Part shown: one piece after another, positions 16,397 to 29,487 of the stretch
How the letters are laid out: the number at the start of each line of letters is the position of its first letter
How positions within the stretch are numbered: the stretch's first letter is position 1
NCBI GenBank assembly: GCA_963745035.1
Contig: CAVUVW010000013.1
Span: 960,001-1,024,000 of the forward strand
Reading direction: 5' to 3'
Source: an uncultured delta proteobacterium
GTDB lineage: Bacteria; Desulfobacterota; Binatia; UBA9968
DNA length: 64,000 nucleotides
The notes under the pieces: generated by a model
Told to the model about the DNA's origin: nothing
The model's database searches: none
Seen by the model: the letters and a program-made list of their open reading frames with translations, nothing else
Made by a program: the position numbers and the translations under genes

Positions 16397-17581
16397 TCAA
16401 CCCGGGTTAAAACCTATACTCGTCCGGGCCGGCGCCGTGCGCTGCGCGCCGGTGGTGACAAACCACGCGCCGAACTCTACCGCGTCGTGATAGTACTCGG
16501 CCCAATGCTCGCCGGCGACAATCCGCTCGGGCGCGCGGTCCGCGCGGAAGACCACGGCCAAGAGTTTGTCTCTTGAATCGCGGAAATTTTCCAACGCGGC
16601 AAAATTCTTCCCCAGCGCCTCCGCCAAAGCTGTCCGTTTGCCATCCGGCGGTGCGGGCTTGCCCGGCGGCATTAAAAGAATCAGCCGCTCATAAAGTTTC
16701 GAATCCATGACCACCTTGAGCTCCCAAAGCAGACCCGGCGTGTCATCGACGACGATCACGATGATTGCCGCCAAAGACAGCAGCTCGCGCACCCGGCTTT
16801 GCCAATCGTCGCCGACGTATTCGCGCAGGGCGCCCAGCGGCGGCAGCTCTTCGCCAGGCCGGCCTATCGCGACCACCGGACCGTACCGGCTGAGCGGACC
16901 GGTGGCCACTTCTTCGAAAGTCAGAGGAACCTCTCGATCGATGATGTTCTCGGCGTCTCTTTCATCGATCTGAAAAGAGCGCAGCCAGACCACCGGCCGG
17001 CGGAGATCCTGGGCGAGCGCTTCGCGCGCCGGCGCCGCGAAATATTTCAGCCGCTCGCGGCCAAGCCTCCGGCTGATGTAGACAAGCTTCCACATGGCGC
17101 TGGCTCCGGCGGCGGGTCCGCCGATGACGAGCCCGATGCTGGCCCACTTGTTCTCGACGTAAAGACCGCAAACCGCCGCGATCAAGCCCGCTGCAAGCGC
17201 CGCCAAAGCCAAAAGCTGACAGCCTCGATAGCGGCACCAGGCCATCAGCGCGCCCTTCCGCCGCCCCTTGGCGCGGTAGCGCCGCGCGCCAAAGAACAAA
17301 TTGCGGCCGAGCCAACGAAGCCGCCATGGCAGGCCGCCTTGAATGCGATCGTTTTCGAAACGCACGCCGCGCAGGCGCGCCACGCGGCTGAGCGCCCACG
17401 CGTACGCTCCCGCAGCCAAGAGAACGAGGAGGGTGGCGCTGAAAAGAAAACCGAAGGCGTCGGTCAACCACGGCGGGGCCTTGAACCAGAGGCCCACGAT
17501 AATACTGAGGATCAGCAGGCCCAGCCAAGTCTCAACTCCCCCACCCTTTGCCATGCTAGCAACGCTCCCCGTCCAACGCAT
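16397..17581 (-). CDS. Membrane protein with C-terminal alpha/beta domain
   Basis: About 4 N-terminal TM helices; PVVWLRSF, GPVVAIGRPGE.LPPLGA, W...V..L...A.II...TPGLLWE. Confidence 0.7.
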   Translation of the reverse strand: MRWTGSVASMAKGGGVETWLGLLILSIIVGLWFKAPPWLTDAFGFLFSATLLVLLAAGAYAWALSRVARLRGVRFENDRIQGGLPWRLRWLGRNLFFGARRYRAKGRRKGALMAWCRYRGCQLLALAALAAGLIAAVCGLYVENKWASIGLVIGGPAAGASAMWKLVYISRRLGRERLKYFAAPAREALAQDLRRPVVWLRSFQIDERDAENIIDREVPLTFEEVATGPLSRYGPVVAIGRPGEELPPLGALREYVGDDWQSRVRELLSLAAIIVIVVDDTPGLLWELKVVMDSKLYERLILLMPPGKPAPPDGKRTALAEALGKNFAALENFRDSRDKLLAVVFRADRAPERIVAGEHWAEYYHDAVEFGAWFVTTGAQRTAPARTSIGFNPG

Positions 17582-19398: not shown

Positions 19399-19437
19399 AA
19401 CTGCGGCAAGCACCAAAGCCCTTGCGAACTTCTTCGG

Positions 19438-19496
19438 TGGTGCCCGGAGCCGGACTCGAACCGGCACAGACCTTTCGGTCCGAGGGATTTTAAGTC
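19438..19496 (-). repeat. att copy: duplicate of the 3' 59 nt of tRNA-Leu(TAA)
   Basis: TGGTGCCCGGAGCCGGACTCGAACCGGCACAGACCTTTCGGTCCGAGGGATTTTAAGTC is identical to 29399..29457. Confidence 0.97.
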
Positions 19497-19604
19497 AGGG
19501 AAACATTCTCGCCAAAATGCATCAACTGACATCAAGGCGCATTATCGCAGCAGTTTCGTGCTGCCGGCAGTGCGGTTTGGTGTCGGTTGGTGTCAGTTAG
19601 TACG

Positions 19605-19813
19605 GCTACAGCGTAAGCTACACACCGCGATAAGCTACAGATCAGCTACAGCCGCGGCGCGTTCAATCGGCGCGCAATCGATCACTCAAACCCGCAGCGA
19701 AAATCACGGCAGAGACGGTAGCGCACGCCATGGCCGCGGGATTCTAGATCCCGTGTACCGCCCTAAATATCGTATCAGAAAAGGTTTTTTGTTCGCTGTA
19801 GCCTAACTGTAAC
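19605..19813. repeat. Clustered GCTACA repeats, possible integrase arm-type or other protein-binding sites
   Basis: GCTACA at 19605, 19617, 19634 and 19645; inverted TGTAGC at 19797 and TGTAAC at 19808. Confidence 0.55.
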
Positions 19814-19823
19814 TAACGATTCA

Positions 19824-20327
19824 ATGTCTGACGAAGCAACGGCAATCCAGAAAGCAGAGCACAAAGGCCCAGGCGGTGCACGTGCCGGCGCCGGTGCGCC
19901 CAAGGGCAACGGCAACCGCCGAACGCACGGCCTTAGATCATTACAGAAGGCATGGTCACAGCTTGGCAACCGGGTGATCGATGGGCGATCCCCCGCGGCC
20001 GTGGCGCTTCGGAAGTGGCGCGCGAATGTGATTGAGGATCTTGGTGGCCGGGAAGCGATCAGCACGCAACAAGAAGCGCTGATAGACCTGGCGTGCAAGA
20101 GCAAACTGCTACTGGATAGCGTCGACGCCTGGCTGATGACTCAGCCAAGGCTGGTTAATGCGCGCAAGCGTTCTCTCATCCACGTAGTTCTTCAGCGCCA
20201 GACCCTTGCCGATGGTCTTGCGCGTTATCTTTCGCAGCTTGGACTTGAGCGCCGGCGCAAAGTGAAAACCATCACCGACCTGCTCAACGGCGATACCGAG
20301 CAGCCGCAAGGCGACACCCGCCAATGA
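19824..20327 (+). CDS. Putative terminase small subunit
   Basis: GGARAGAGAPKGNGNRRTHG resembles the phage TerS GAPxGNxNxxxHG motif; helical body; upstream of TerL. Confidence 0.6.
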   Translation: MSDEATAIQKAEHKGPGGARAGAGAPKGNGNRRTHGLRSLQKAWSQLGNRVIDGRSPAAVALRKWRANVIEDLGGREAISTQQEALIDLACKSKLLLDSVDAWLMTQPRLVNARKRSLIHVVLQRQTLADGLARYLSQLGLERRRKVKTITDLLNGDTEQPQGDTRQ

Positions 20328-20332
20328 CCGCG

Positions 20333-20668
20333 TTAACGGAGAAAACGCATCCTGGGCAGATTGGGACGGGAGCTGTATGGAACGGTTACATGTGGCAAAA
20401 CGGAGAGCTTTTCCAAGTAGATAGTTCCGCTCCGGCACCTCACGTACACCGCCTGGCAGGTTGCACACACAAGCGCACTTTCAAGCGCTCTTTTCCGGAG
20501 AAATATGAGTGCTCCTTGGGTGTGGCTGGAAAGTCGAGAATATTCCGATCTTTCAAGCGGCCTTTGGATTCCGTCTTTACAATTGCTCGGGCATCTACTT
20601 TTCATATCGGCCTTCAGTTTTTGTACGTTCGTACTTTCTCCGCAATCGCGGGGGCAATCCTTTCTCAT
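20333..20668 (-). CDS. Cys-rich hypothetical protein between 16-bp direct repeats
   Basis: CxxxC..CxxxC..CxxC pattern; AT-rich block. The overlapping + ORF 20324..20713 is an alternative reading. Confidence 0.35.
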   Translation of the reverse strand: MRKDCPRDCGESTNVQKLKADMKSRCPSNCKDGIQRPLERSEYSRLSSHTQGALIFLRKRALESALVCATCQAVYVRCRSGTIYLEKLSVLPHVTVPYSSRPNLPRMRFLR

Positions 20669-20709
20669 AAAGCCGGTGACGAATCAAGCCCACGTTGGAG
20701 CACACACGA

Positions 20710-21063
20710 ATGACCGCGTTAACGCAGCCGGTTGACGAGACCGGCCCTGTCACAGGCGCAAAGCGCACAGAAGGCGTCAATCTAGTCGTTACGACTAGCA
20801 GGGAGCATTTTGAGCAATGTGCTAACCCGTTTTGCAGGACCGCTATCCACTCCCTGAACTCGGGACGCTGGCGACGGACCCGGCGGCGCTTCTGTTCTGA
20901 CATCTGCAAGTATGACTTTCACGCGTTGAAGCGCATCAAGCCGTTACTCGCCAAGGTTGGCGTGATCCGGTTTCACGAACTGCTGGACGAATTTGGGAAG
21001 GCCACGGCGTCACGGCGCTCAGAGCACGGAGAACCGCCAAGAATCAACGCACAACGCCGATGA
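20710..21063 (+). CDS. Putative zinc-finger protein
   Basis: CANPFC...RRFCSDIC treble-clef-like pattern; GGAG RBS before ATG 20710. Confidence 0.55.
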   Translation: MTALTQPVDETGPVTGAKRTEGVNLVVTTSREHFEQCANPFCRTAIHSLNSGRWRRTRRRFCSDICKYDFHALKRIKPLLAKVGVIRFHELLDEFGKATASRRSEHGEPPRINAQRR

Positions 21064-21081
21064 AGGGGTTAGGTCCGGTCA

Positions 21082-21252
21082 ATGACGTTTATCCGCCCCA
21101 CGCTGGAAGATGGCCGACATGTGCTTATCCGGGCTGATCTTATCCAGCAGGTAAGGCAACGCGAGACCGGCGCCGAGATATGGCTACCCACCGCCGTTGT
21201 GGCCGTAGTCGACACCATCGACCAAATACAGGCCATGCTGAGGGACTTATGA
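21082..21252 (+). CDS. Small phage-type hypothetical protein (56 aa)
   Basis: Manual translation MTFIRPTLEDGRHVLIRADLIQQVRQRETGAEIWLPTAVVAVVDTIDQIQAMLRDL. Confidence 0.5.
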   Translation: MTFIRPTLEDGRHVLIRADLIQQVRQRETGAEIWLPTAVVAVVDTIDQIQAMLRDL

Positions 21253-21333
21253 CCGACGCCAACGTCAAGCGCCTGTTTCCCCGCTCAGCGGTTGGCCAGC
21301 ATCAAGGCGCGCGCAGAGAAAAAAGGCATCCCG

Positions 21334-21540
21334 CTATGAGCGAATCAGCAACCAAAGAAGATGCAAAAATCCACGTCCCCAAGTGCCGTTTGGACTTACC
21401 CAATAGCGGGAGTTGCAATCACGGCAGGCAATTAGCTGTGCATTTATGAGGCTGCTCAACAAGAGTTCCCAGCGGCTGCGATGAGAGCGCTCGAAGCTAT
21501 GACTGCGGCAATGCGGGCATGAATACAACACAGTGACCAC
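21334..21540 (-). CDS. Small zinc-ribbon protein
   Basis: CPHC...SHRSRWE...CRDC.SRYW. Confidence 0.5.
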   Translation of the reverse strand: MVTVLYSCPHCRSHSFERSHRSRWELLLSSLINAQLIACRDCNSRYWVSPNGTWGRGFLHLLWLLIRS

Positions 21541-21560
21541 CGATTATCACACAGGATCCA

Positions 21561-23038
21561 ATGGCCATGACCAAACTGATTAACCCTATCACCTTCATCG
21601 ACAAGCTGGTTAAGAAAAACGAGCTTGGCCAGCCCTTCACGCTCAGCGATCACCAGCGGGAAATCCTGCGACTTGCCTTCGCCTTCGGTCCAGATGGCCA
21701 CCTTCAATACGACACGGTCGTTTACAGCTGCCCCAAGAAGAGCGGCAAAACCCTCGTGAACGCCGCGGTAACGCTCGCCTGGGCCTTCACTCAGGAAGCG
21801 CCGAACGAAATACTAATCCTCGCCAATGACATGGAGCAGTCCTTGGCGCGCGTCTTCCGCACTATGGAAGGCATCATCCAGCACAACCCCGAGCTACGGC
21901 GGGAAGCCGAAGTACAGGCCAAAACGATCTATCTCGCCAACGGCACGATCTTGACGGCCATTAGCGGCGATTACCAGGGCGCCGCGGGCAGCAATCACGG
22001 CTTTGTGAGCTATGACGAGCTTTGGGGTTACACGTCTGAAGCATCCATCCGGCTATGGGAAGAGTTAACGCCGGTTCCCACACGCAAAAACTCTATCCGG
22101 TTCATCACGACCTATGCCGGTTTTGAAGGCGAGTCGAAATTGCTTTGGGACCTATACCGCCAGGTGATGAGCCTCGATGAGCACCCGGAGGGACAAGGCG
22201 AGCGCCTTCACCCCGATTTGCCGATCTTCGGTAACCGCGAAGCCCGGATCTTCGCCTACTGGGACCATGAACCGCGCATGCCGTGGCAGACAGAGGCTTA
22301 CTACGCGAGCCAGAAACGCGTTCTCCGCCCCGGTACGTATCTCCGCCTGCACGAAAACAAGTGGGCGAGCGCGGAAGAGATTTTTATTTCCGGCAATCTT
22401 TGGGACCCATGCATCGTCCGCACTCCGCTGCCGGCCTTTACGGGCCCTGTGCAGCAGATTGTGGCCGACCCCTATCAGCTGCACAGATCGATCACGACGC
22501 TCAAGAACGCCAGCATTCCGATCAAGGAATTTCCCCAGACGCAAGCGAACTGCACGCTCATGGGGCAAACCCTCTTCGACCTGCTCAACGCAATCTGGTG
22601 ATGTATCCGGCCGATGATCTACGGAGCCAGGCGCTAAGCACCATTGCCGTCGAGCATCCCCGCGGCTGGAGAATCGCGAAGGAAAAGGCATCGAAGAAGA
22701 TCGACGCCATTGTCGCCTTGGCCATGGCGTGCTGTGCCGCAATCGAGCGCGGCAAGACACCCGGGCTTTTCGTCGGTGTGGATGCCGGCATCAAGCATGA
22801 CTGCGCGGCCGTGGTTGCCGTGGCGTGGGGCAAAGAGGCGGACAAATTGTATTTGGTGAGTCATAAAATCTGGAAGCCCACGCCGGAGAACCCGCTGGAT
22901 ATTGAGAACACAATTGAGTGGTATCTCCGCCAGCTCTACACCCAACACCATCACGGGCTCACGGGTGTCGGGAAAGTCCAAACCGACTACGACCCGTTTG
23001 AAAGAGCGAAGGAGCAAGAGCGGAGGCTCGATGGCTGA
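21561..23038 (+). CDS. Terminase large subunit (1-nt frameshift near 22590; permuted nuclease domain)
   Basis: Walker A CPKKSGKT, Walker B SYDELWG, ITTYAG coupling motif, RLHENKW; nuclease motifs DPYQL, KIDAIVALAMA and LFVGVDAG. Confidence 0.88.
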
Positions 23039-23222
23039 GTGCCAAGCCGAGAAGTGCCCGATGGGCAGAGTAGCTAACCGCCACGATGGGATGGACCCGT
23101 ACTGCTTTTGGGTGTGCGGTTTACGGCCGCCTGAGCCAGCCAAAATCGTGGCCATTACCGAAGGGGTGCGGGAATCGGAAAACGTTGCTAGCGAATACGA
23201 CCCGTATCGCGAAAGGTGGTGA
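23031..23222 (+). CDS. Small Cys-containing hypothetical protein (63 aa)
   Basis: GGAGG RBS; overlaps the TerL stop; MAECQAEKCPMG...SEYDPYRERW. Confidence 0.5.
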   Translation: MAECQAEKCPMGRVANRHDGMDPYCFWVCGLRPPEPAKIVAITEGVRESENVASEYDPYRERW

Positions 23223-23283
23223 GAGCATAGCTAAGTATCAAACCGAAGTGACCGCCTATTAACCCACAACCAAAGAGGGAAAA

Positions 23284-23721
23284 ATGATCTTCGACAAACA
23301 AAATAGCTTCGATGAAAACGCGGCAATCACCGTGACGCGGGACTCGACCAACATTATTGACCTCGGTGTGGCCACACCGAATATTGCCGGGAGCGTGGTC
23401 GGGACACTAGATATAGCGATCATCGTGACAGAGACCTTCACCGCCGATGGTGCGGCAACGCTCCAGATATGCTCAGCGACGGCCGATAATGAGTCTCTGG
23501 ATACGCCGACGCTTCTGGATCGGGTGACGTTGGCTCTCGCGGATTTAGCCGTAGGCCGTCCTCCAATCGTCCTTCAACTTCCGCAAGCGACGATCCAGCG
23601 CTATCTCGGCCTTATCTACACCGTCGCCACCGGTCCGATGACCGCCGGAAAGATCACGGCCAGGATCGCGGCTGATGTGCAGTTGAGCCACGCGTACCCA
23701 AAAAACTTCGTGGCTGTCTGA
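23284..23721 (+). CDS. Bbp16-like capsid cement/decoration protein
   Basis: MIFDKQNSF..AAIT...STNIIDLG, V.E.F..GAATLQ, RYLGLIYTVATGPMTAGKITA, a pattern recalled for Bordetella phage BPP-1 Bbp16 homologues; GAGGG RBS. Confidence 0.8.
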   Translation: MIFDKQNSFDENAAITVTRDSTNIIDLGVATPNIAGSVVGTLDIAIIVTETFTADGAATLQICSATADNESLDTPTLLDRVTLALADLAVGRPPIVLQLPQATIQRYLGLIYTVATGPMTAGKITARIAADVQLSHAYPKNFVAV

Positions 23722-23762
23722 GGTTCTACTAACCTACAAACTCAAAGAAGGAGAAAACGACC

Positions 23763-23975
23763 ATGGATCAATCAGAAATCTACCGCGAGCAGCGCAAGCG
23801 CGACGATGAAATTCTTGCGGGCGTGCAGCCGCGAATGAAGGCACCGGCGGGTTGCAAGCACCCTGAAGATTGTCAGCTGGCGAAATTGCGAAACCAGTGC
23901 GGCGCCAGCTTTCCGTCATTCTGTTACTCGAATTGCCAGCTGCCGGGCGCGATCAACGATCCGGCGAGGAAGTAG
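23763..23975 (+). CDS. Small Cys-rich hypothetical protein
   Basis: AAGGAG RBS; C-x4-C...C...C-x3-C pattern. Confidence 0.55.
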   Translation: MDQSEIYREQRKRDDEILAGVQPRMKAPAGCKHPEDCQLAKLRNQCGASFPSFCYSNCQLPGAINDPARK

Positions 23976-23981
23976 GCTACC

Positions 23982-24614
23982 ATGGAAACACCAGAACGAA
24001 GCATCGCGGATATACTGTATCCGTCGCAGAATCAGGATCGGCCGGCAGCTCAGCCAGGTGCAGCAGAGCGCACGGTTGCGGAAGTGCTGTACGGGAAGGA
24101 ACCCGCCAAGGAACCCGCGAAGGAAGCGCCAAAGGCCGAGCAGCCCAAGAGCGACAAGGCAGACGGCAAAAATTACCTTGACAAACTGGCCGAGGATGCG
24201 GTCGCCGCGGATCGCTACGATTTGAAGCTTCCCGATGGGGTCCTTGTCGACGAGCCGTTGATGCGTGATTTTAACAAGCTTGCGCGCGAGCACGGGTTCA
24301 ACAACGACCAGGCGCAGCGCTGGGCGGACTTGCACCTTCGCGCCATTGGAGACGTGCACCGGCAGGTCGCCGAATACGAACAGGTCAGCGAGGACCGTTA
24401 CACCGAGGTCAAAGGCTGGGAGACGGAATTTCAAAACGATCCGGAGTTTGGCGGCGCTAATGCCAAGGAGACGATAGCGCAGGCGCGCCAGGCGCTCGAA
24501 TCATTCGGCACACCCGAAGAAGTCGCGCGGCTAACAAAAGAGCTTGAGCGCACCGGGCTCGGCAATCATCCGATTCTCATCAAGGGATTGGCAAAGTTAG
24601 CCCAATATCTTTGA
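23982..24614 (+). CDS. Podovirus (BPP-1/epsilon15-like) scaffold-type head assembly protein
   Basis: Pro/Ala/Glu-rich N-terminus, YDLKLPDG..D, A.E.G...QAQ, W....DPEFGG, FG.PE, TGLGNHP.LIK. Confidence 0.7.
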   Translation: METPERSIADILYPSQNQDRPAAQPGAAERTVAEVLYGKEPAKEPAKEAPKAEQPKSDKADGKNYLDKLAEDAVAADRYDLKLPDGVLVDEPLMRDFNKLAREHGFNNDQAQRWADLHLRAIGDVHRQVAEYEQVSEDRYTEVKGWETEFQNDPEFGGANAKETIAQARQALESFGTPEEVARLTKELERTGLGNHPILIKGLAKLAQYL

Positions 24615-24652
24615 GAGCATCGGCGACGGCCGCATCCGTCACGGCGGGCCGC

Positions 24653-24750
24653 CTGACTTTGAGACCTTGAAAAACCTGCCGCCGATAACGACCAAATCGG
24701 ATTTTGACTGTCGGGCGGCACCGTGGGGAAATTGGGACCCGCGGCGCCGG
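24653..24750. repeat. Diverged ~98-bp direct repeat, copy 1
   Basis: 48 of the first 56 nt identical to the copy at 25554 by manual alignment. Confidence 0.8.
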
Positions 24751-24837
24751 GTATGGTGCGATGCTGGTGGAGGCTAGGAGAGATGGCGCCTGGCGGGTGA
24801 ACTAGCACTTCGCCCTGAGTGGAGAGTCGCAACGACC

Positions 24838-25167
24838 CTACGCCCTCAACGCAGCTCGACAAATAGCCAACGGGACAGTGGAGGCCTCGGCCCTTATTTT
24901 TTTACCAAACGCGCAGTAAAAACCGCCATCGGGCAGACGGCGCAACTCAAAGCATAAAGTGCCCTGCAATCTGTCCACTACCTCCCAGGCGACAGCGATG
25001 TCGGTGGAAGGGCAAAACTCAGACTTACGGCGATACCCACTGTCAGTAGCCCACGGAATTATGCCGTCAATCCATGTACCCGTAGCATTTCGCCACCCCA
25101 TCACTTTTCCGGCAATCAACGCATCTAGTTTTCGCCCGGCTCTCATTTCATCAGTATCCATGTCCAT
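24838..25167 (-). CDS. Phage ABA-sandwich/BC1872-like protein
   Basis: AGRKLDALIA.KVMGW, FCPSTDIAVAWEVVDRL, TVPLAICRAAL. Confidence 0.75.
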   Translation of the reverse strand: MDMDTDEMRAGRKLDALIAGKVMGWRNATGTWIDGIIPWATDSGYRRKSEFCPSTDIAVAWEVVDRLQGTLCFELRRLPDGGFYCAFGKKIRAEASTVPLAICRAALRA

Positions 25168-25351
25168 GCGTCTCCAAATTCTGGCTCCTACACCCAAACG
25201 CAAACCCGTGCGGCTTCACGCTTCGACGTGGTCCAGCTCTGGATGACCAATACGTCCCAGACCAGGGCACCGTGCAAAAGATGTGGTGAGGAATTATGAC
25301 TGTACCATGCCCGAAGAAGAAACAGTACCTTCCGTGATTTTTGGTAGTGTC

Positions 25352-25468
25352 TCAAAACGCCAGCGGTGCCGAGTCCAGGGCGGCCAGGACGCTCATCGCA
25401 ATCGTTGTTGAATAAAAACAGAGCAAAAATGTAAGGCTGGCTAGGACAGCTTTGCAGAAGGTTTTCAT
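25352..25468 (-). CDS. 38-aa hydrophobic peptide
   Basis: GGGAGG RBS; MKTFCKAVLASLTFLLCFYSTTIAMSVLAALDSAPLAF. Confidence 0.45.
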   Translation of the reverse strand: MKTFCKAVLASLTFLLCFYSTTIAMSVLAALDSAPLAF

Positions 25469-25553
25469 GGTGCGCCCTCCCCGTTGTCGGTAACTGGAAG
25501 CGGCGCTGCTATACTCTCATTCGGGATTCAGGGCAAACACCATTTTAGGCCCT

Positions 25554-25651
25554 CTGACTTTGAGAGGTTAAAAAACCTGTCTCCGATAACGACCAACCAG
25601 GATTTTGACGTGCGCCGATTGGCCGGGACGTGGGGAGATCCGCGGCGGCGG
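25554..25651. repeat. Diverged ~98-bp direct repeat, copy 2
   Basis: CTGACTTTGAGA..AAAAACCTG..CCGATAACGACCAA..GGATTTTGAC shared with the copy at 24653. Confidence 0.8.
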
Positions 25652-25678
25652 TGATGCAGAAACCGACCACGCTTAGCA

Positions 25679-25969
25679 CTAAAGCTCCAGGCCGCCAATG
25701 TCTTCGATGGACCGTCCAACGTGGGATTTCAAGAATACTGAGAAACGATGACAGAAGCGGGAGTTGTCAAAAATCAACCTGCCGAGATACGGAAGATCGT
25801 TGCTTGTAATGTAAATATAGAGGGCACGGGCTGACTTCGGGTCGTTGGCAACGTGTGTTAGAACCCCGATTTCGCCGGTCAGAGTTGTCTCGCCATATCT
25901 TTCCTTCCAGGCTGGCGGCCAAATTCGCCCCTTGGTGTTGCTCATTAGCGGATGATGCCGAACTTTCAT
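25679..25969 (-). CDS. Hypothetical protein
   Basis: Globular-looking 96 aa (HPLM..WPP.W..GEIGVL..Y.G.L.FD..FC). Confidence 0.65.
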   Translation of the reverse strand: MKVRHHPLMSNTKGRIWPPAWKERYGETTLTGEIGVLTHVANDPKSARALYIYITSNDLPYLGRLIFDNSRFCHRFSVFLKSHVGRSIEDIGGLEL

Positions 25970-26116
25970 TGAGAAACCCTTATCACGTCGGTTCGCTGGC
26001 GTATATCTCTCTCATCTGCGCTAACAAATGTTTTTCGGCTGACGATGGGCATCCGATAAAGTACGAAATTACACTGGGTCTATTTTGAAAAAAGCTTGAC
26101 TCAAGGGGATTCGGTT

Positions 26117-26290
26117 TTAAGTGAAACCGGTGATGTGATGCCAAGGCACGGTTTCACCGTCTGGCTTATTCTGGCAGTGTGGGCAAGCTGCTTCTCTGGC
26201 GTATTGGATGATTCTTTCGCCGGGCTTCAATTCAACCTCGAAAGTCTCCCGGCACTTCTGGCATCTCAATGTCCATATCCCCCGGTCCAT
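26117..26290 (-). CDS. Small zinc-ribbon protein
   Basis: GGAGG RBS; CQKC...CPHC. Confidence 0.6.
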   Translation of the reverse strand: MDRGIWTLRCQKCRETFEVELKPGERIIQYAREAACPHCQNKPDGETVPWHHITGFT

Positions 26291-26395
26291 AGCTTTATTG
26301 TCCCCTCCGCGCGTAAGAGCCGTCGAGTACGCAAGAATCCGAAGCAAGTGTCAACGGGAACTTTGCAATGTCCGTAAGACGACAAATAAAGTCGT

Positions 26396-26548
26396 CTATC
26401 TTTTACCCTCTCGCGATTTTTGTTTGCTGACTTTTTCGAGAGCCTTCTGGATTTCGAGGATTAGTTTTTCCTGTTTCTCTGAAAGCTTTTTGGACTGCTC
26501 TAACAGCCTGCGACTACTTTCTAACAGCTGCTCTACTTCCTTCGGCAT
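26396..26548 (-). CDS. Small coiled-coil protein (50 aa)
   Basis: Manual translation MPKEVEQLLESSRRLLEQSKKLSEKQEKLILEIQKALEKVSKQKSREGKR. Confidence 0.5.
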   Translation of the reverse strand: MPKEVEQLLESSRRLLEQSKKLSEKQEKLILEIQKALEKVSKQKSREGKR

Positions 26549-26762
26549 TCGGACATGATACTATCTCGGGTTTGGTCAGCCAAGTATGTTGTTAGAAGAA
26601 TGCACGAGACTAGAAGTCGAGATGTTCCGAGAAAACAAATAGAACTGCACCACTACTTCTTCTCCCCCGCAAGAAGCGCCGGACCCTTTCGAGCCCGGCC
26701 CCCTTATGCAAAACCAGTTAAACTTGCGCCGCGGTTCTCTTCCCGTGTAAGAAATATTCCCG

Positions 26763-27479
26763 ATGTACGGGCACGAAACATCCATAGAGCGGCGCTACAA
26801 AGGCTTTCGCATCTACGGCGACGCGCGTAGCGTGCACAATGAGTCGCCGCGATGGTTCGCGGTCGGCCAAGTTTTTGTCGACATGCCGAACGGCTCGCTC
26901 TATGGCGTCGAAAACTTCTCGGACCCATCTTTGGCCTATGAGGACGAGGAGCTGGCGGCGTGGTTTGGCCTAGGCCTGGCGGAAATCGTGGTGGATCACC
27001 TGGTGCCGCCAGCGGAGTACTACTTGACGCCGATGAATCCGGCATGGGCGGTGGATCTGCTGCGCCGCGGGGCGCGGGACGTGGGCAAGCTCCAGTTGGT
27101 GAAACTTTACGAGGGGATGAAGTATCTGGAAAAGTCGCTCGACGAAAGCCGTGGCTGGTGCGCCGCTATCGCCGCACGCTGGAGGGCGACACCCGCAACG
27201 AGAGCGACGAAAAACGGAATCGCCGTCGGCTCGGCCTCATGGCGCGGGAGATTGAGCGCGTTTGCGTGGAAAAAATCGTCGGCGGAAATGAACGAATCGG
27301 CGCGCCGCTACCGCGAGAACAAGCGCAAAATCGACTGGCTCCGGCGCGTGCTGGAGCTGGTGCGCGCGCCAGTGAGTCATTCGCGCACTACCCGGTGCGC
27401 TTCTTTATCCTCTCGCAAACCTGCAAAGCTTGAATGCCTGAGATGGCCGTCGGGCGTCCACTCGGTAAACTCGATCTGA
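26763..27479 (+). CDS. Hypothetical protein, probably frameshifted near 27150-27290
   Basis: Protein-like N-terminal ~130 aa; the coding-like frame switches to ORF 26960..27433 (KPWLVRRYRR...) and back. Confidence 0.5.
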   Translation: MYGHETSIERRYKGFRIYGDARSVHNESPRWFAVGQVFVDMPNGSLYGVENFSDPSLAYEDEELAAWFGLGLAEIVVDHLVPPAEYYLTPMNPAWAVDLLRRGARDVGKLQLVKLYEGMKYLEKSLDESRGWCAAIAARWRATPATRATKNGIAVGSASWRGRLSAFAWKKSSAEMNESARRYRENKRKIDWLRRVLELVRAPVSHSRTTRCASLSSRKPAKLECLRWPSGVHSVNSI

Positions 27480-27692
27480 GCGACGAGCGCCACCGGTTAA
27501 CGCTCCAGCGGCGCGCCCGCGCTTAGCTCGCCTCCAACTACTACGGAATGGGTTCTTACCTGTGGGTCTGCGATCTGCTCGACGTTGAGCCGTCATGGAT
27601 TCGCCGGCGCATGATCCGAGTGTTGAACACTGGCGAGGTGGGCAAGCAGGGCGACGGCGCATTCAGCGTGGCGCGGCTGGCGGCGATTGTGA

Positions 27693-27968
27693 TCAGAGGC
27701 GGGAACTGCTTTCCATTCTTCGGTCTTCAATGCTTAAACCGTCCGGCCGACAGCGAATTTGAGCGAGAAAATCTGGACGAATCGCGAACATATGTTTGAG
27801 CAAGTCTAATTTCTCGGCTCCACAGAGGATGCGAACAACAACGGCACCATTCTCATCATAAACGACGATGCCGTTTTTCAACAAAGAGTATTGGGGTGAC
27901 CGCCGGGTAAATTTCGCGACGCAACGTAAGTAAATCGCGATGGGAATTTCAACGATAAATTCTTGCAT
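27693..27968 (-). CDS. Hypothetical protein
   Basis: 91-aa ORF, globular composition. Confidence 0.5.
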   Translation of the reverse strand: MQEFIVEIPIAIYLRCVAKFTRRSPQYSLLKNGIVVYDENGAVVVRILCGAEKLDLLKHMFAIRPDFLAQIRCRPDGLSIEDRRMESSSRL

Positions 27969-28262
27969 AACTTATCCCCCCAAAGCGTGCCGTTAATAGC
28001 ACTATACGTAGTAAAGTCCAACCTCTTTTTTAGCGGCGACGTAAAAGATGTGCCTCCTGCACTTCAAGCCGCAGCATACGGCTATCCTTGCGAACTATGC
28101 ACCATTTTTGTGAATTATGCACCATTTTTGCCGATGTGGTCTCTCTTTCAAACAGTTGTTTGTGCTCCAGAAAGTCCTAGAAACTCCTTAATCCTACGCT
28201 TCGAGGTTACGGCAAAATCTTTGCTTTCAACTCTTCTGATCGAGGTTGGTTGATATAACACA

Positions 28263-28622
28263 GTGATCCTACTCGTTGAAGACAATGCGATAAGCAGGCA
28301 TGCGCTTGCTGCGATCCTTGTTAGATGGGGGCACGAGGTTATCCAGGTATCAGACGGCGAGCACGCGATTACCACGCTCGCAGAAGGGCACCCGATCACA
28401 CTAGTGATCACGGATTTGGCAATGCCCAAAATGACGGGTTTCGGTGTGCTCACCCATATCCATCAAAGATGGCCAAACCTTCCGGTAATCTTGACTACGG
28501 GTTACCTCTCGCCCCAAGTGGCAGAGTCAATCCTGAATGAGAATGTTAAATTCCTTTCTAAGCCGATAGACTTGAATGAGCTGCTCACCACTATTGAAGG
28601 ATTCACCGCTCCCAGTGTTTAG
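28263..28622 (+). CDS. Single-domain response regulator
   Basis: ILLVEDN, VITDLAMPKMTG, LTTGY, LSKP. Confidence 0.9.
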   Translation: MILLVEDNAISRHALAAILVRWGHEVIQVSDGEHAITTLAEGHPITLVITDLAMPKMTGFGVLTHIHQRWPNLPVILTTGYLSPQVAESILNENVKFLSKPIDLNELLTTIEGFTAPSV

Positions 28623-28685
28623 CGCAAAGAATGTCTGGGGATGAGCTACGTCTGGTGCTCGTGTTCCCCAGCGGCTTTTGGACCT

Positions 28686-29102
28686 ATGTCACACGCTAAA
28701 GCCCTACGAGTGATCGGGCAGACACTCGATACTGCCGGGATAACGACGTTCAAGTTGCACAAATGTGCGGAGTTTTACCGCTTATGGACCGCCGAGTATG
28801 TGTTCTGCTTCGCGGCAAATGATATTTGCCGTCTCGATAGCAAGGCGCAAAAGAGACGAAAAAACAATTCAACGCCAATCCGATCAACATTGCTCTCTCA
28901 TCAGCTGCGGGCTTTGGGCGATTATCTTGATAGAAGGGAAGTAACCACGTTTCGCATCGTGTGGACGGCTGATTCTGCTCTTTTAGATTACGAACAACTT
29001 GACGGAGACCGAACAAGTAAGGCTTTTACACCTGAAGAATTGCGACAGCTGGGTCTACACCGAAGTTTGTTCCGCTCCAGCCAGTATCTTCTGCATCCCT
29101 GA
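28686..29102 (+). CDS. Hypothetical protein with internal duplication
   Basis: LRVIGQTLDTAGITTFKL and LRALGDYLDRREVTTFRI. Confidence 0.6.
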   Translation: MSHAKALRVIGQTLDTAGITTFKLHKCAEFYRLWTAEYVFCFAANDICRLDSKAQKRRKNNSTPIRSTLLSHQLRALGDYLDRREVTTFRIVWTADSALLDYEQLDGDRTSKAFTPEELRQLGLHRSLFRSSQYLLHP

Positions 29103-29360
29103 TAGTATTCGCATCGCGGACGACCGGTTGATTTTTTAGCTGCCCAATCACTCTCTGCTTACCTCAAGCTTGAAGACTACGCGGGCCGCTGATAATTGGT
29201 TTTTTTCTTGTTGCCTGCAATACTGCCAGCAGAGACGCCTACCTCATTCAGATCAGGCAGATCGATGAAGCCTATCGAAATCAGGAAATTTCTAAGGCCG
29301 AGTATCTTAGCCTCAAAATGCAAGCGGAGAACGCTTATCTGCAAAGAAAAACAACAATCG

Positions 29361-29389
29361 CAGCGGGGGGCAATCTCTTCCCCTCGCTG
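29361..29389 (-). terminator. GC hairpin downstream of tRNA-Leu
   Basis: CAGCGGGGGG-loop-CCCCTCGCTG followed by a T-rich tract on the minus strand. Confidence 0.45.
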
Positions 29390-29398
29390 ACGAAATCT

Positions 29399-29487
29399 TG
29401 GTGCCCGGAGCCGGACTCGAACCGGCACAGACCTTTCGGTCCGAGGGATTTTAAGTCCCTTGTGTCTACCTATTCCACCATCCGGGC
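29399..29487 (-). tRNA. tRNA-Leu (anticodon TAA), CCA encoded
   Basis: GCCCGGATGGTGGAATAGGTAGACACAAGGGACTTAAAATCCCTCGGACCGAAAGGTCTGTGCCGGTTCGAGTCCGGCTCCGGGCACCA; long variable arm. Confidence 0.97.

Follow-up and report, generated by a model that had tools for sequence, protein, structure and literature searches.

The 64,000-nucleotide stretch analysed here (the window: contig CAVUVW010000013.1, positions 960,001 to 1,024,000, from an uncultured soil bacterium of the class Binatia) carries a 10.0-kb element, the broken and stranded copy of an island that was integrated at a tRNA gene and resembles the phage-inducible chromosomal islands (PICIs). The lineage behind it is probably one of PICI-like satellites that bring a complete terminase of their own and load helper procapsids with it, and the cement and scaffold genes of the window copy would fit a BPP-1/epsilon15-like podovirus. 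Its large terminase subunit (TerL) is, by the order of its motifs, circularly permuted in the nuclease domain, strands 1–3 and one helix having shifted to the C-terminal end. More tentatively, and a little short of probable, these islands may amount to a satellite class undescribed in the literature searched. Such a class would combine a complete terminase and helper-matched head genes with neither capsid nor portal, and one of its lineages would hold the first naturally occurring circular permutation of a terminase nuclease domain, in which the displacement of the portal-facing C-terminus may retune portal choice.

A deletion derivative at a tRNA-Leu gene and its relatives

The element is bounded by an exact direct repeat of 59 nt (positions 19438–19496 and 29399–29457, 100% identity), a duplication already recognised in the initial annotation, which had been made from the letters alone. 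The repeat is the 3′ part of a tRNA-Leu(TAA) gene, from 4 nt before the anticodon through CCA; the gene itself (29399–29487, minus strand), which includes the proximal attachment (att) copy, is intact, the sole tRNA of the window and the one match in a Rfam scan of it. With direct repeats at a specific site and a length of 10.0 kb the element has the att arrangement of a PICI, and its GC content is 54.9% compared with 59–60% in the flanks. Three AGCTACA repeats (19616–19650, plus strand), likely integrase arm-type sites, follow the distal att copy; the 7.4-Mb host genome (G000, 92.6% complete) has no other such cluster.

The att region was matched in 21 of the 31 genomes of the genus, and site DNA was fetched from seven (eight stretches). 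Four of these genomes (G005, G015, G018 and G045) have a single att copy in the fetched stretch, that is, an empty site, and three of the four share with the window the pyrophosphatase gene that comes after the tRNA. At the site in G003 stands an integrase relic of 3 kb. G012 and G024 harbour a related element with an integrase at the same tRNA-Leu, each split across two contigs: the first holds the distal att copy, AGCTACA repeats and TerS-like and zinc-finger open reading frames (ORFs), the second xis, integrase, AGCTACA repeats and tRNA, and AGCTACA pairs border both ends of the two elements. The order in G024 is an unbroken TerL (690 aa), cargo, a primase (687 aa), a scaffold-like ORF, xis, integrase and tRNA-Leu, with four small ORFs in addition. 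The window copy keeps the distal AGCTACA repeats and has lost the integrase–xis–primase block and the tRNA-side repeats; a profile built from eight island integrases and run in six frames detected no integrase remnant in the window. Since the integrase-side block and its repeats are both present in G012 and G024, the window copy is a deletion derivative. The closest integrase in its own genome is only 41% identical to the integrase serving this site in a relative. A satellite mobilised in trans, or the remnant of one, had been proposed initially: the remnant stands, with relatives that keep integrase, primase and terminase and have no capsid or portal match, and mobilisation in trans is unlikely for this copy because its TerL is broken, its tRNA-side arm repeats are gone and the closest genomic integrase is so distant. 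The copy is probably immobile.

Hand-picked window ORFs, 21 scanned against PHROGs and 23 against Pfam, gave matches to TerL, Bbp16, phrog_458, a Phage_ABA_S domain and a receiver domain. No match to a capsid, portal, tail, primase or integrase was found among the ORFs scanned, in line with the initial annotation, and both the integrase profile and the frame lengths agree. Only three stop-free frames in the element reach 240 codons, two of them the pieces of TerL and the third a cargo frame of 242 codons, so that no free frame is long enough for an HK97-type capsid gene. The P4 proteins Sid, Psu, Delta and alpha primase had no PHROG or Pfam match among the scanned window ORFs either, and no AlpA-, MerR- or Stl-type regulator was found in the window, whereas the relatives have primase, xis and a MerR-like helix-turn-helix protein. 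The ORF called TerS-like (19824–20327, plus strand, 167 aa) precedes TerL, as it does in the relatives, and is linked in the ESM Atlas, as a lead at 0.91, to a cluster with Terminase_4 in 28% of its members, both of which favour the call; PHROGs and Pfam gave it no match. ORFs at this position in two distant islands match small-terminase Pfam families below the cut-off, and the ratio of nonsynonymous to synonymous substitution rates (dN/dS) between the window ORF and a paralogous copy on contig C26 of the same genome is 0.23, with dS near saturation.

TerL relatives occur in seven of the 31 genus genomes and in 27 of 401 genomes of the class (23 of these in one other family), and G000 itself has at least eight other decayed TerL loci. 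A search of genomes for elements of the same capsid-less type, which the initial annotation had recommended, yielded eleven further islands of 11–17 kb that are bounded by direct repeats and carry this TerL family: G003:C32, G018:C42, G000:C6, two on G000:C26, L183 and, in the other family, L205, L206, L208, L209 and L210, the latter five out of eight loci fetched. Relics of 7–9 kb (L031, L036 and L037) were barely scanned and were not counted. Selected ORFs of the eleven islands were scanned with PHROGs and Pfam, and no scanned ORF matched a capsid or portal, which makes 12 of 12 bounded islands when the window element is included. Most of the eleven have an integrase and a primase or helicase; TerL runs in one uninterrupted frame in seven of them, and no TerS-like ORF could be recognised in L209. 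The window and every relative examined have their own TerL, the relatives having been found by a TerL query. An accessory slot holds scaffold-like ORFs in G018 and G024, prohead protease or Mu gpI-like ORFs in L183, L166 and the unbounded L207 (of protease/scaffold type in L183 and L207), and tape-measure-like ORFs in L183 (12722–14779) and L205 (12193–14031). Given eleven other islands without a capsid or portal match, the element likely descends from a PICI-like island that had a full terminase of its own, and not from a prophage.

The initial annotation had taken a deleted prophage as its null hypothesis. Extended to the islands, it says that survivors were retained by chance or deletion bias and that cement and scaffold are a leftover head module, which we consider unlikely. 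Distant TerLs (44–54% identity) do occur in six true phages with portals (L040, L041, L042, L058, L083 and L169), and both the number of decayed copies in G000 and the scattered structural genes of some islands (tape-measure-like, protease) are what such deletions would leave. However, the islands agree in size and core across two families of the class and many different tRNAs, relatives occupy the same site as the window element, and none of the 12 bounded islands has a capsid or portal match. In a quick IQ-TREE analysis of the ATPase part (99 rows, other-family loci left out) the genus island TerLs fall into a 42-row clade (Shimodaira–Hasegawa-like approximate likelihood ratio test support, 99) that includes none of the six portal-bearing phage rows. 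The intact relatives might instead be capsid-forming PICIs (cf-PICIs) whose capsid and portal have diverged too far for the profiles used. TerL is a defining cf-PICI gene in the accessible text of PMC10085698, and several unannotated island ORFs measure 200–350 aa, but these ORFs vary between islands, PHROGs usually detect portals (and did so in the six phage loci) and the window has no free frame of sufficient length; we regard this explanation as very improbable.

Several further loci touch on the family. A capsid-less TerL element (L039:9861–13471) has a tape-measure-like and a tail-assembly gene, and fragments of an ATP-dependent, LigD-like DNA ligase recur as cargo (L001:13857–14835, L003:15334–16313 and L006:12014–12691). 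Viral contigs L068, L072, L078 and L080 have a related TerL (48–50%) followed by large ORFs; of these, a 635-aa ORF in L068 and a 488-aa ORF in L078 were scanned, with no PHROG match and no portal recognised. An intact TerL used as a single query found no match in viral contigs. No description of capsid-less TerL islands was found in the literature searched, which lay largely outside subscription journals and supplements.

Circular permutation of the terminase nuclease

The terL gene lies in two pieces on the plus strand. The 5′ piece (21561–22601; phrog_9, E = 1e-22, agreeing with the initial call) encodes the ATPase (Walker A at 21735, Walker B at 22011) followed directly by nuclease strands 4–5 (DPYQ at 22467), and runs out of frame near 22590; a frameshift there splits TerL, and compared with the C26 paralogue 4 bp are deleted. 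The contigs listed neither confirm nor exclude this deletion, and single-base frameshifts in the relatives could be assembly errors. The 3′ piece (22589–23038, 149 codons, 97% identity and a dN/dS of 0.08 to the C26 copy) encodes the remaining nuclease core (KIDA at 22697) and then the relocated segment (22763–22945), comprising strands 1–3 and helix A with GVD at 22775. The C26 copy of terL is itself interrupted, a few bases from the same point, by a 403-aa transposase that we take to be of IS110 type. HK97 TerL (PDB 6Z6D) is the top match both in sequence (E = 9e-5) and in structure (Foldseek E = 2.5e-15; Z = 25.2).

Canonical relatives have two segments after the ATPase: B (FVGVD...KHD, made up of three strands plus a helix) comes first and C (DPYQ...KIDAIVALAMA) second. 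In the window and C26 proteins segment B is gone from its usual place and sits after segment C, so that strands 1–3 and helix A follow the last helix. An unpermuted query gave seven proteins of permuted order among its 120 best homologues; with two permuted-query searches added, ten of 309 proteins were permuted and 268 canonical, segment B was undetected in 13 and segment C was missing from 18. The ten permuted database proteins come from JGI/ENA records; P0052, P0055, P0059, P0065 and P0072 are permuted TerLs that are intact. None of the 150 best 50%-cluster representatives has the permuted order, and the permutation therefore looks narrow.

It is hardly credible that faulty assembly produced the order or that the rearrangement is dead. 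Both G000 copies are broken, two of the ten proteins (P0121 and P0132) appear frameshifted in the tail, and no intact permuted gene was seen in genomic context. The artefact part is nevertheless already contradicted by the ten proteins, which share the order at 60–75% identity to the permuted homologue P0059, and by a 581-nt contig of run X5 (~94% identical) that is colinear across the C-to-B joint. A dead rearrangement fits poorly with the moved segment, for which dN is 0.021, dS 0.27 and dN/dS ~0.08 between window and C26, and with a confident predicted fold. The GVD, DPYQ and KIDA motifs, the acidic residues of which are presumably catalytic, are retained in the window and nearly invariant in 11 aligned homologues, and Walker A and B and all three nuclease aspartates are conserved, permuted forms included.

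The AlphaFold model of P0059 from a 52-row alignment has a mean predicted local distance difference test score (pLDDT) of 91.5 and a predicted template modelling score (pTM) of 0.81; residues 401–460, the relocated segment, form three strands and a helix at pLDDT 88–98, with 11 of the alignment rows filling these columns. This was a rerun of an 11-row model in which the ATPase was unfolded and the nuclease alone confident and for which Foldseek returned no match. Sequential alignments of the P0059 model to terminases end at residues 392–400, before the relocated segment. Residues 290–465 of the earlier model align in sequence order with Maf, CinA, ITPase and tRNA-synthetase anticodon-binding domains at middling scores (Z 5–7.5). 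The Maf/CinA-type strand order is that of an RNase H sheet with strands 1–3 moved to the end, and with that fold description the alignments fit an intact permuted RNase H sheet. The permuted nuclease is predicted to keep the sheet and its three acidic residues and to be active in intact homologues.

A tree of the nuclease segment nearly groups the permuted forms (nine of them together with two canonical rows, support 0.80), and in the ATPase tree they are scattered, which suggests one or two origins and later recombination. As far as the accessible text of PMC7617512 describes it, the HK97 nuclease domain was placed next to the portal, and the permutation would touch this docking face. No description of a permuted terminase nuclease was found in the same literature.

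Three other arrangements were seen among the relatives. A terL relic (L033:2182–2692, G041:C111) that appeared permuted by hit order proved to be a local inversion and was rejected. In L177 (1926–4425) the 3′ part of terL is tandemly duplicated, with two sets of ATPase end, B and C, and such duplications could seed permutation. In a TerL subgroup of ~670–690 aa (L001:9998–12064 of G003:C32; P0012–P0027) the nuclease is followed by a further C-terminal domain of ~200 aa, which opens with the strand PVFIGQ and is possibly a degenerate second domain of RNase H-like type.

Cement and scaffold genes, possible helper and cargo

Downstream of terL, on the same strand, lie a Bbp16-like cement (capsid decoration) protein (23284–23721, 145 aa; PF21190, E = 1.5e-22), a 70-aa ORF seen only here and in the C26 copy (23763–23975; dN/dS 0.57, not significant) and a scaffold-like protein (23982–24614, 210 aa; phrog_458, E = 2e-29). 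The cement and scaffold-like calls of the initial annotation are supported by these matches. phrog_458 carries the PHROG label ‘protease’, and in BPP-1-like phages members of the family immediately precede the capsid gene, a position that points to a scaffold role. The statement that the capsid gene of such phages sits with scaffold and cement proved correct throughout: of 80 viral loci found via the cement protein, 61 had enough upstream DNA, and all 61 have the order scaffold, capsid, cement. The window and C26 copies have cement, 70-aa ORF, scaffold and no capsid gene, an order that is not obtainable from the phage order by one deletion. Island TerL had no match in the 80 cement-bearing viral loci, within the available flanks, and of the 160 TerL loci that scans of viruses and metagenomes had yielded none matched cement or scaffold; the module is therefore a mosaic. 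Neutral dN/dS in the retained genes, which the initial annotation had held against a satellite, was not found: the ratios between window and C26 are 0.40 for cement (Fisher p = 8e-4) and 0.42 for the scaffold-like gene (p = 9e-5), and the moved TerL segment is lower still. As judged from these substitutions, cement and scaffold have been under purifying selection since the two copies split. The swapped order, the origin of cement and scaffold in a phage lineage other than that of TerL and the divergence under selection of two copies already without a capsid gene all speak further against deleted prophages.

Among the scaffold-like ORFs of the relatives, that of G018 matches phrog_3742 (E = 3e-4), as does the window scaffold (3e-7). 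A 171-aa ORF of G024 is a lead only, with a weak similarity to the window scaffold (E = 0.035; hidden Markov model E = 0.027 among 11,768 ORFs; Atlas 0.86). Two scaffold-like ORFs of intact islands (L004:9550–10062 and L003:19593–20066) seem to have an HPxH-type motif N-terminally and the scaffold core after it, which is the reverse of podophage scaffolds and possibly a second permutation.

The satellite reading that we favour builds on what was observed directly, namely the boundaries, gene content and decay of this copy, the architecture of its relatives and the permuted order with its purifying selection. Upon helper infection the island would excise and replicate, TerS would select the island's own packaging site and TerL would dock on the helper portal, so that in intact relatives the island's own terminase would package island DNA into helper phage procapsids. 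The captured BPP-1/epsilon15-like scaffold and cement would give helper heads, perhaps small ones, their shape and stability. In the present copy integrase, xis, primase and one arm region are gone and TerL is frameshifted.

A different use of the same genes is that terminase, scaffold and cement mainly interfere with head assembly or packaging of an incoming phage, as a defence, while the island spreads otherwise or rarely. Known satellites reportedly deploy scaffolds and packaging inhibitors against their helpers, an HK97-type TerL is mismatched with podoviral head proteins and the accessory genes are variable. A decoy would, however, not need the Walker motifs and three nuclease aspartates that are kept even in the permuted forms, integrase, xis and primase indicate a mobile life cycle, and PADLOC gave no match in the 20 ORFs scanned (13 of them from the window); we hold interference to be quite improbable.

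Several findings weigh against the satellite reading. Bbp16 is present in one of the 401 class genomes, G000 itself, and is not a core gene of the family; many genus copies are broken; capsids were judged absent from the relatives by profile searches that covered selected ORFs; and all dN/dS values derive from the single sequence pair of window and C26. No helper was matched in G000 by PF20911 and PF12236, where control profiles also matched nowhere, and the GP7-type capsid (PF20911) gave weak matches only, in three of 401 class genomes. No excised circle or attP/attB joint was seen among the joints listed for the contigs of four runs, and none of the 160 fetched loci has terminal repeats. Portal compatibility is not obvious either, given an HK97-type TerL next to podoviral cement and scaffold. 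In addition, seven phage capsid and portal queries had no match in G000, and PF20911 had none in the 31 genus genomes. The helper prophage and site-matching integrase that the initial annotation had advised seeking elsewhere in the genome were not found, the nearest integrase being the distant one described above. Of the proposed link to a BPP-1/epsilon15-like podovirus, the origin of cement and scaffold stands, and the helper, the rarity of Bbp16 and the HK97-like TerL do not bear it out; a podophage helper is plausible for this lineage.

A loose end at 19436 in X5 was rejected as a circle joint since it does not match the island's right end, and joints skipping 24706–25625 were rejected as excision since they match a paralogous repeat on C26. 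A 10-query structural-gene search missed most viral loci and was not counted.

Features beyond the initial annotation include, besides the TerL frameshift, the permuted nuclease and the position of cement before scaffold, an antisense ORF and multi-copy cargo. Between TerS and TerL lie an ORF of 129 codons and uncertain coding status (20324–20713, plus strand; five genome sites, no family match), a Cys-rich zinc-finger-like ORF (20695–21063, plus strand; no family match) found at the same position in L001, L003, L005 and L297, and a 68-aa zinc-ribbon ORF inserted antisense before terL (21334–21540, minus strand; eight genome sites, weak Zn-ribbon matches). A 63-aa Cys-containing ORF without family match (23031–23222, plus strand) overlaps the terL stop and is shared with the C26 copy. 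The right half (24.6–29.4 kb) consists mostly of genes repeated across the genome. An imperfect 62-nt repeat (24647–24708 and 25548–25609) brackets the Phage_ABA_S ORF (24838–25203, minus strand), and a repeat of 62–110 nt is found at four places, at least three of them in island DNA (the window pair, G000:C13:354229–354343 and G000:C26:175293–175441), maybe as a coding fragment or a cis-site. The small multi-copy cargo genes (25679–29102) encode proteins of 96 aa (25679–25969, 28 genome sites), a Zn-ribbon protein (26117–26347), proteins of 238 aa (26763–27479) and 91 aa (27693–27968), a receiver domain (28263–28622) and a protein of 153 aa (28641–29102, 14 genome sites); the first and last families match neither Pfam nor PHROGs. 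A promoter scan of the window remained at chance level (6 versus 5.2). In host DNA left of the element, a 394-aa membrane-protein-like ORF (16397–17581, minus strand) has no Pfam match.

Comparison with known satellites

P4 and the Vibrio PLE (an element resembling phage-inducible chromosomal islands) resemble the window element in having a satellite scaffold for helper capsids, Sid in P4 and TcaP in PLE, and P4 in addition has a decoration protein, Psu. Sid and TcaP are, however, satellite-specific scaffolds, whereas the window genes are straightforward homologues of head genes from podophages. We know of no TerL in P4 or PLE.

As yardstick for PICIs we used the SatelliteFinder model as given in the accessible text of PMC10085698. 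Like PICIs, the intact relatives are ~10–15 kb long and have att at a tRNA 3′ end, integrase, regulator or xis, primase, a TerS-like ORF, a head-morphogenesis gene and cargo; unlike PICIs, the window copy has neither integrase nor primase, and the island family encodes its own TerL, where PICIs rely on the helper's. That source (de Sousa et al, 2023) lists TerS for PICIs and counts TerL, alongside capsid genes, among the cf-PICI markers. With cf-PICIs the islands share a TerS-like ORF and an HK97-type TerL of their own on a small integrative element (TerL being broken in the window), but capsid, portal and head–tail connectors are required in cf-PICIs and none was detected in the islands. The element would work like a PICI but belongs to neither PICIs nor cf-PICIs. 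PICI-like tycheposons and marine virion-encapsidated integrative mobile elements (VEIMEs) are likewise tRNA-integrated or virion-borne, with integrase, primase or helicase and TerS; in the accessible parts of these sources, tycheposons carry TerS or a capsid protein (10.1101/2020.12.28.424599), and the helper is presumed to supply the large terminase of marine satellites (Eppley et al, PMC9618062).

The HK97 large terminase is closest in sequence and structure, with a nuclease chain order that is permuted in the window type. The Bbp16 and upstream scaffold families are those of the BPP-1/epsilon15 head module, as far as PMC3863775 is accessible, from which the window differs by the absence of capsid and portal and by the swapped gene order; the same text reports Bbp16 to be essential for infectious BPP-1 particles. 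New, compared with these systems, are the permuted TerL nuclease and podoviral cement and scaffold genes in swapped order without a capsid gene. The window copy is dead; what makes it useful is that it points to the island family and to the permuted enzyme. As a natural permutant, the latter indicates from its predicted fold that a terminase nuclease may tolerate reopening between helix A and strand 4, and it is a ready construct for the role of the TerL C-terminus in portal docking and cleavage. PICIs, P4 and PLE borrow the TerL of their helper and cf-PICIs make a whole head; islands with TerL and without a head lie between these two types and render the compatibility of TerL and portal across unrelated viruses testable.

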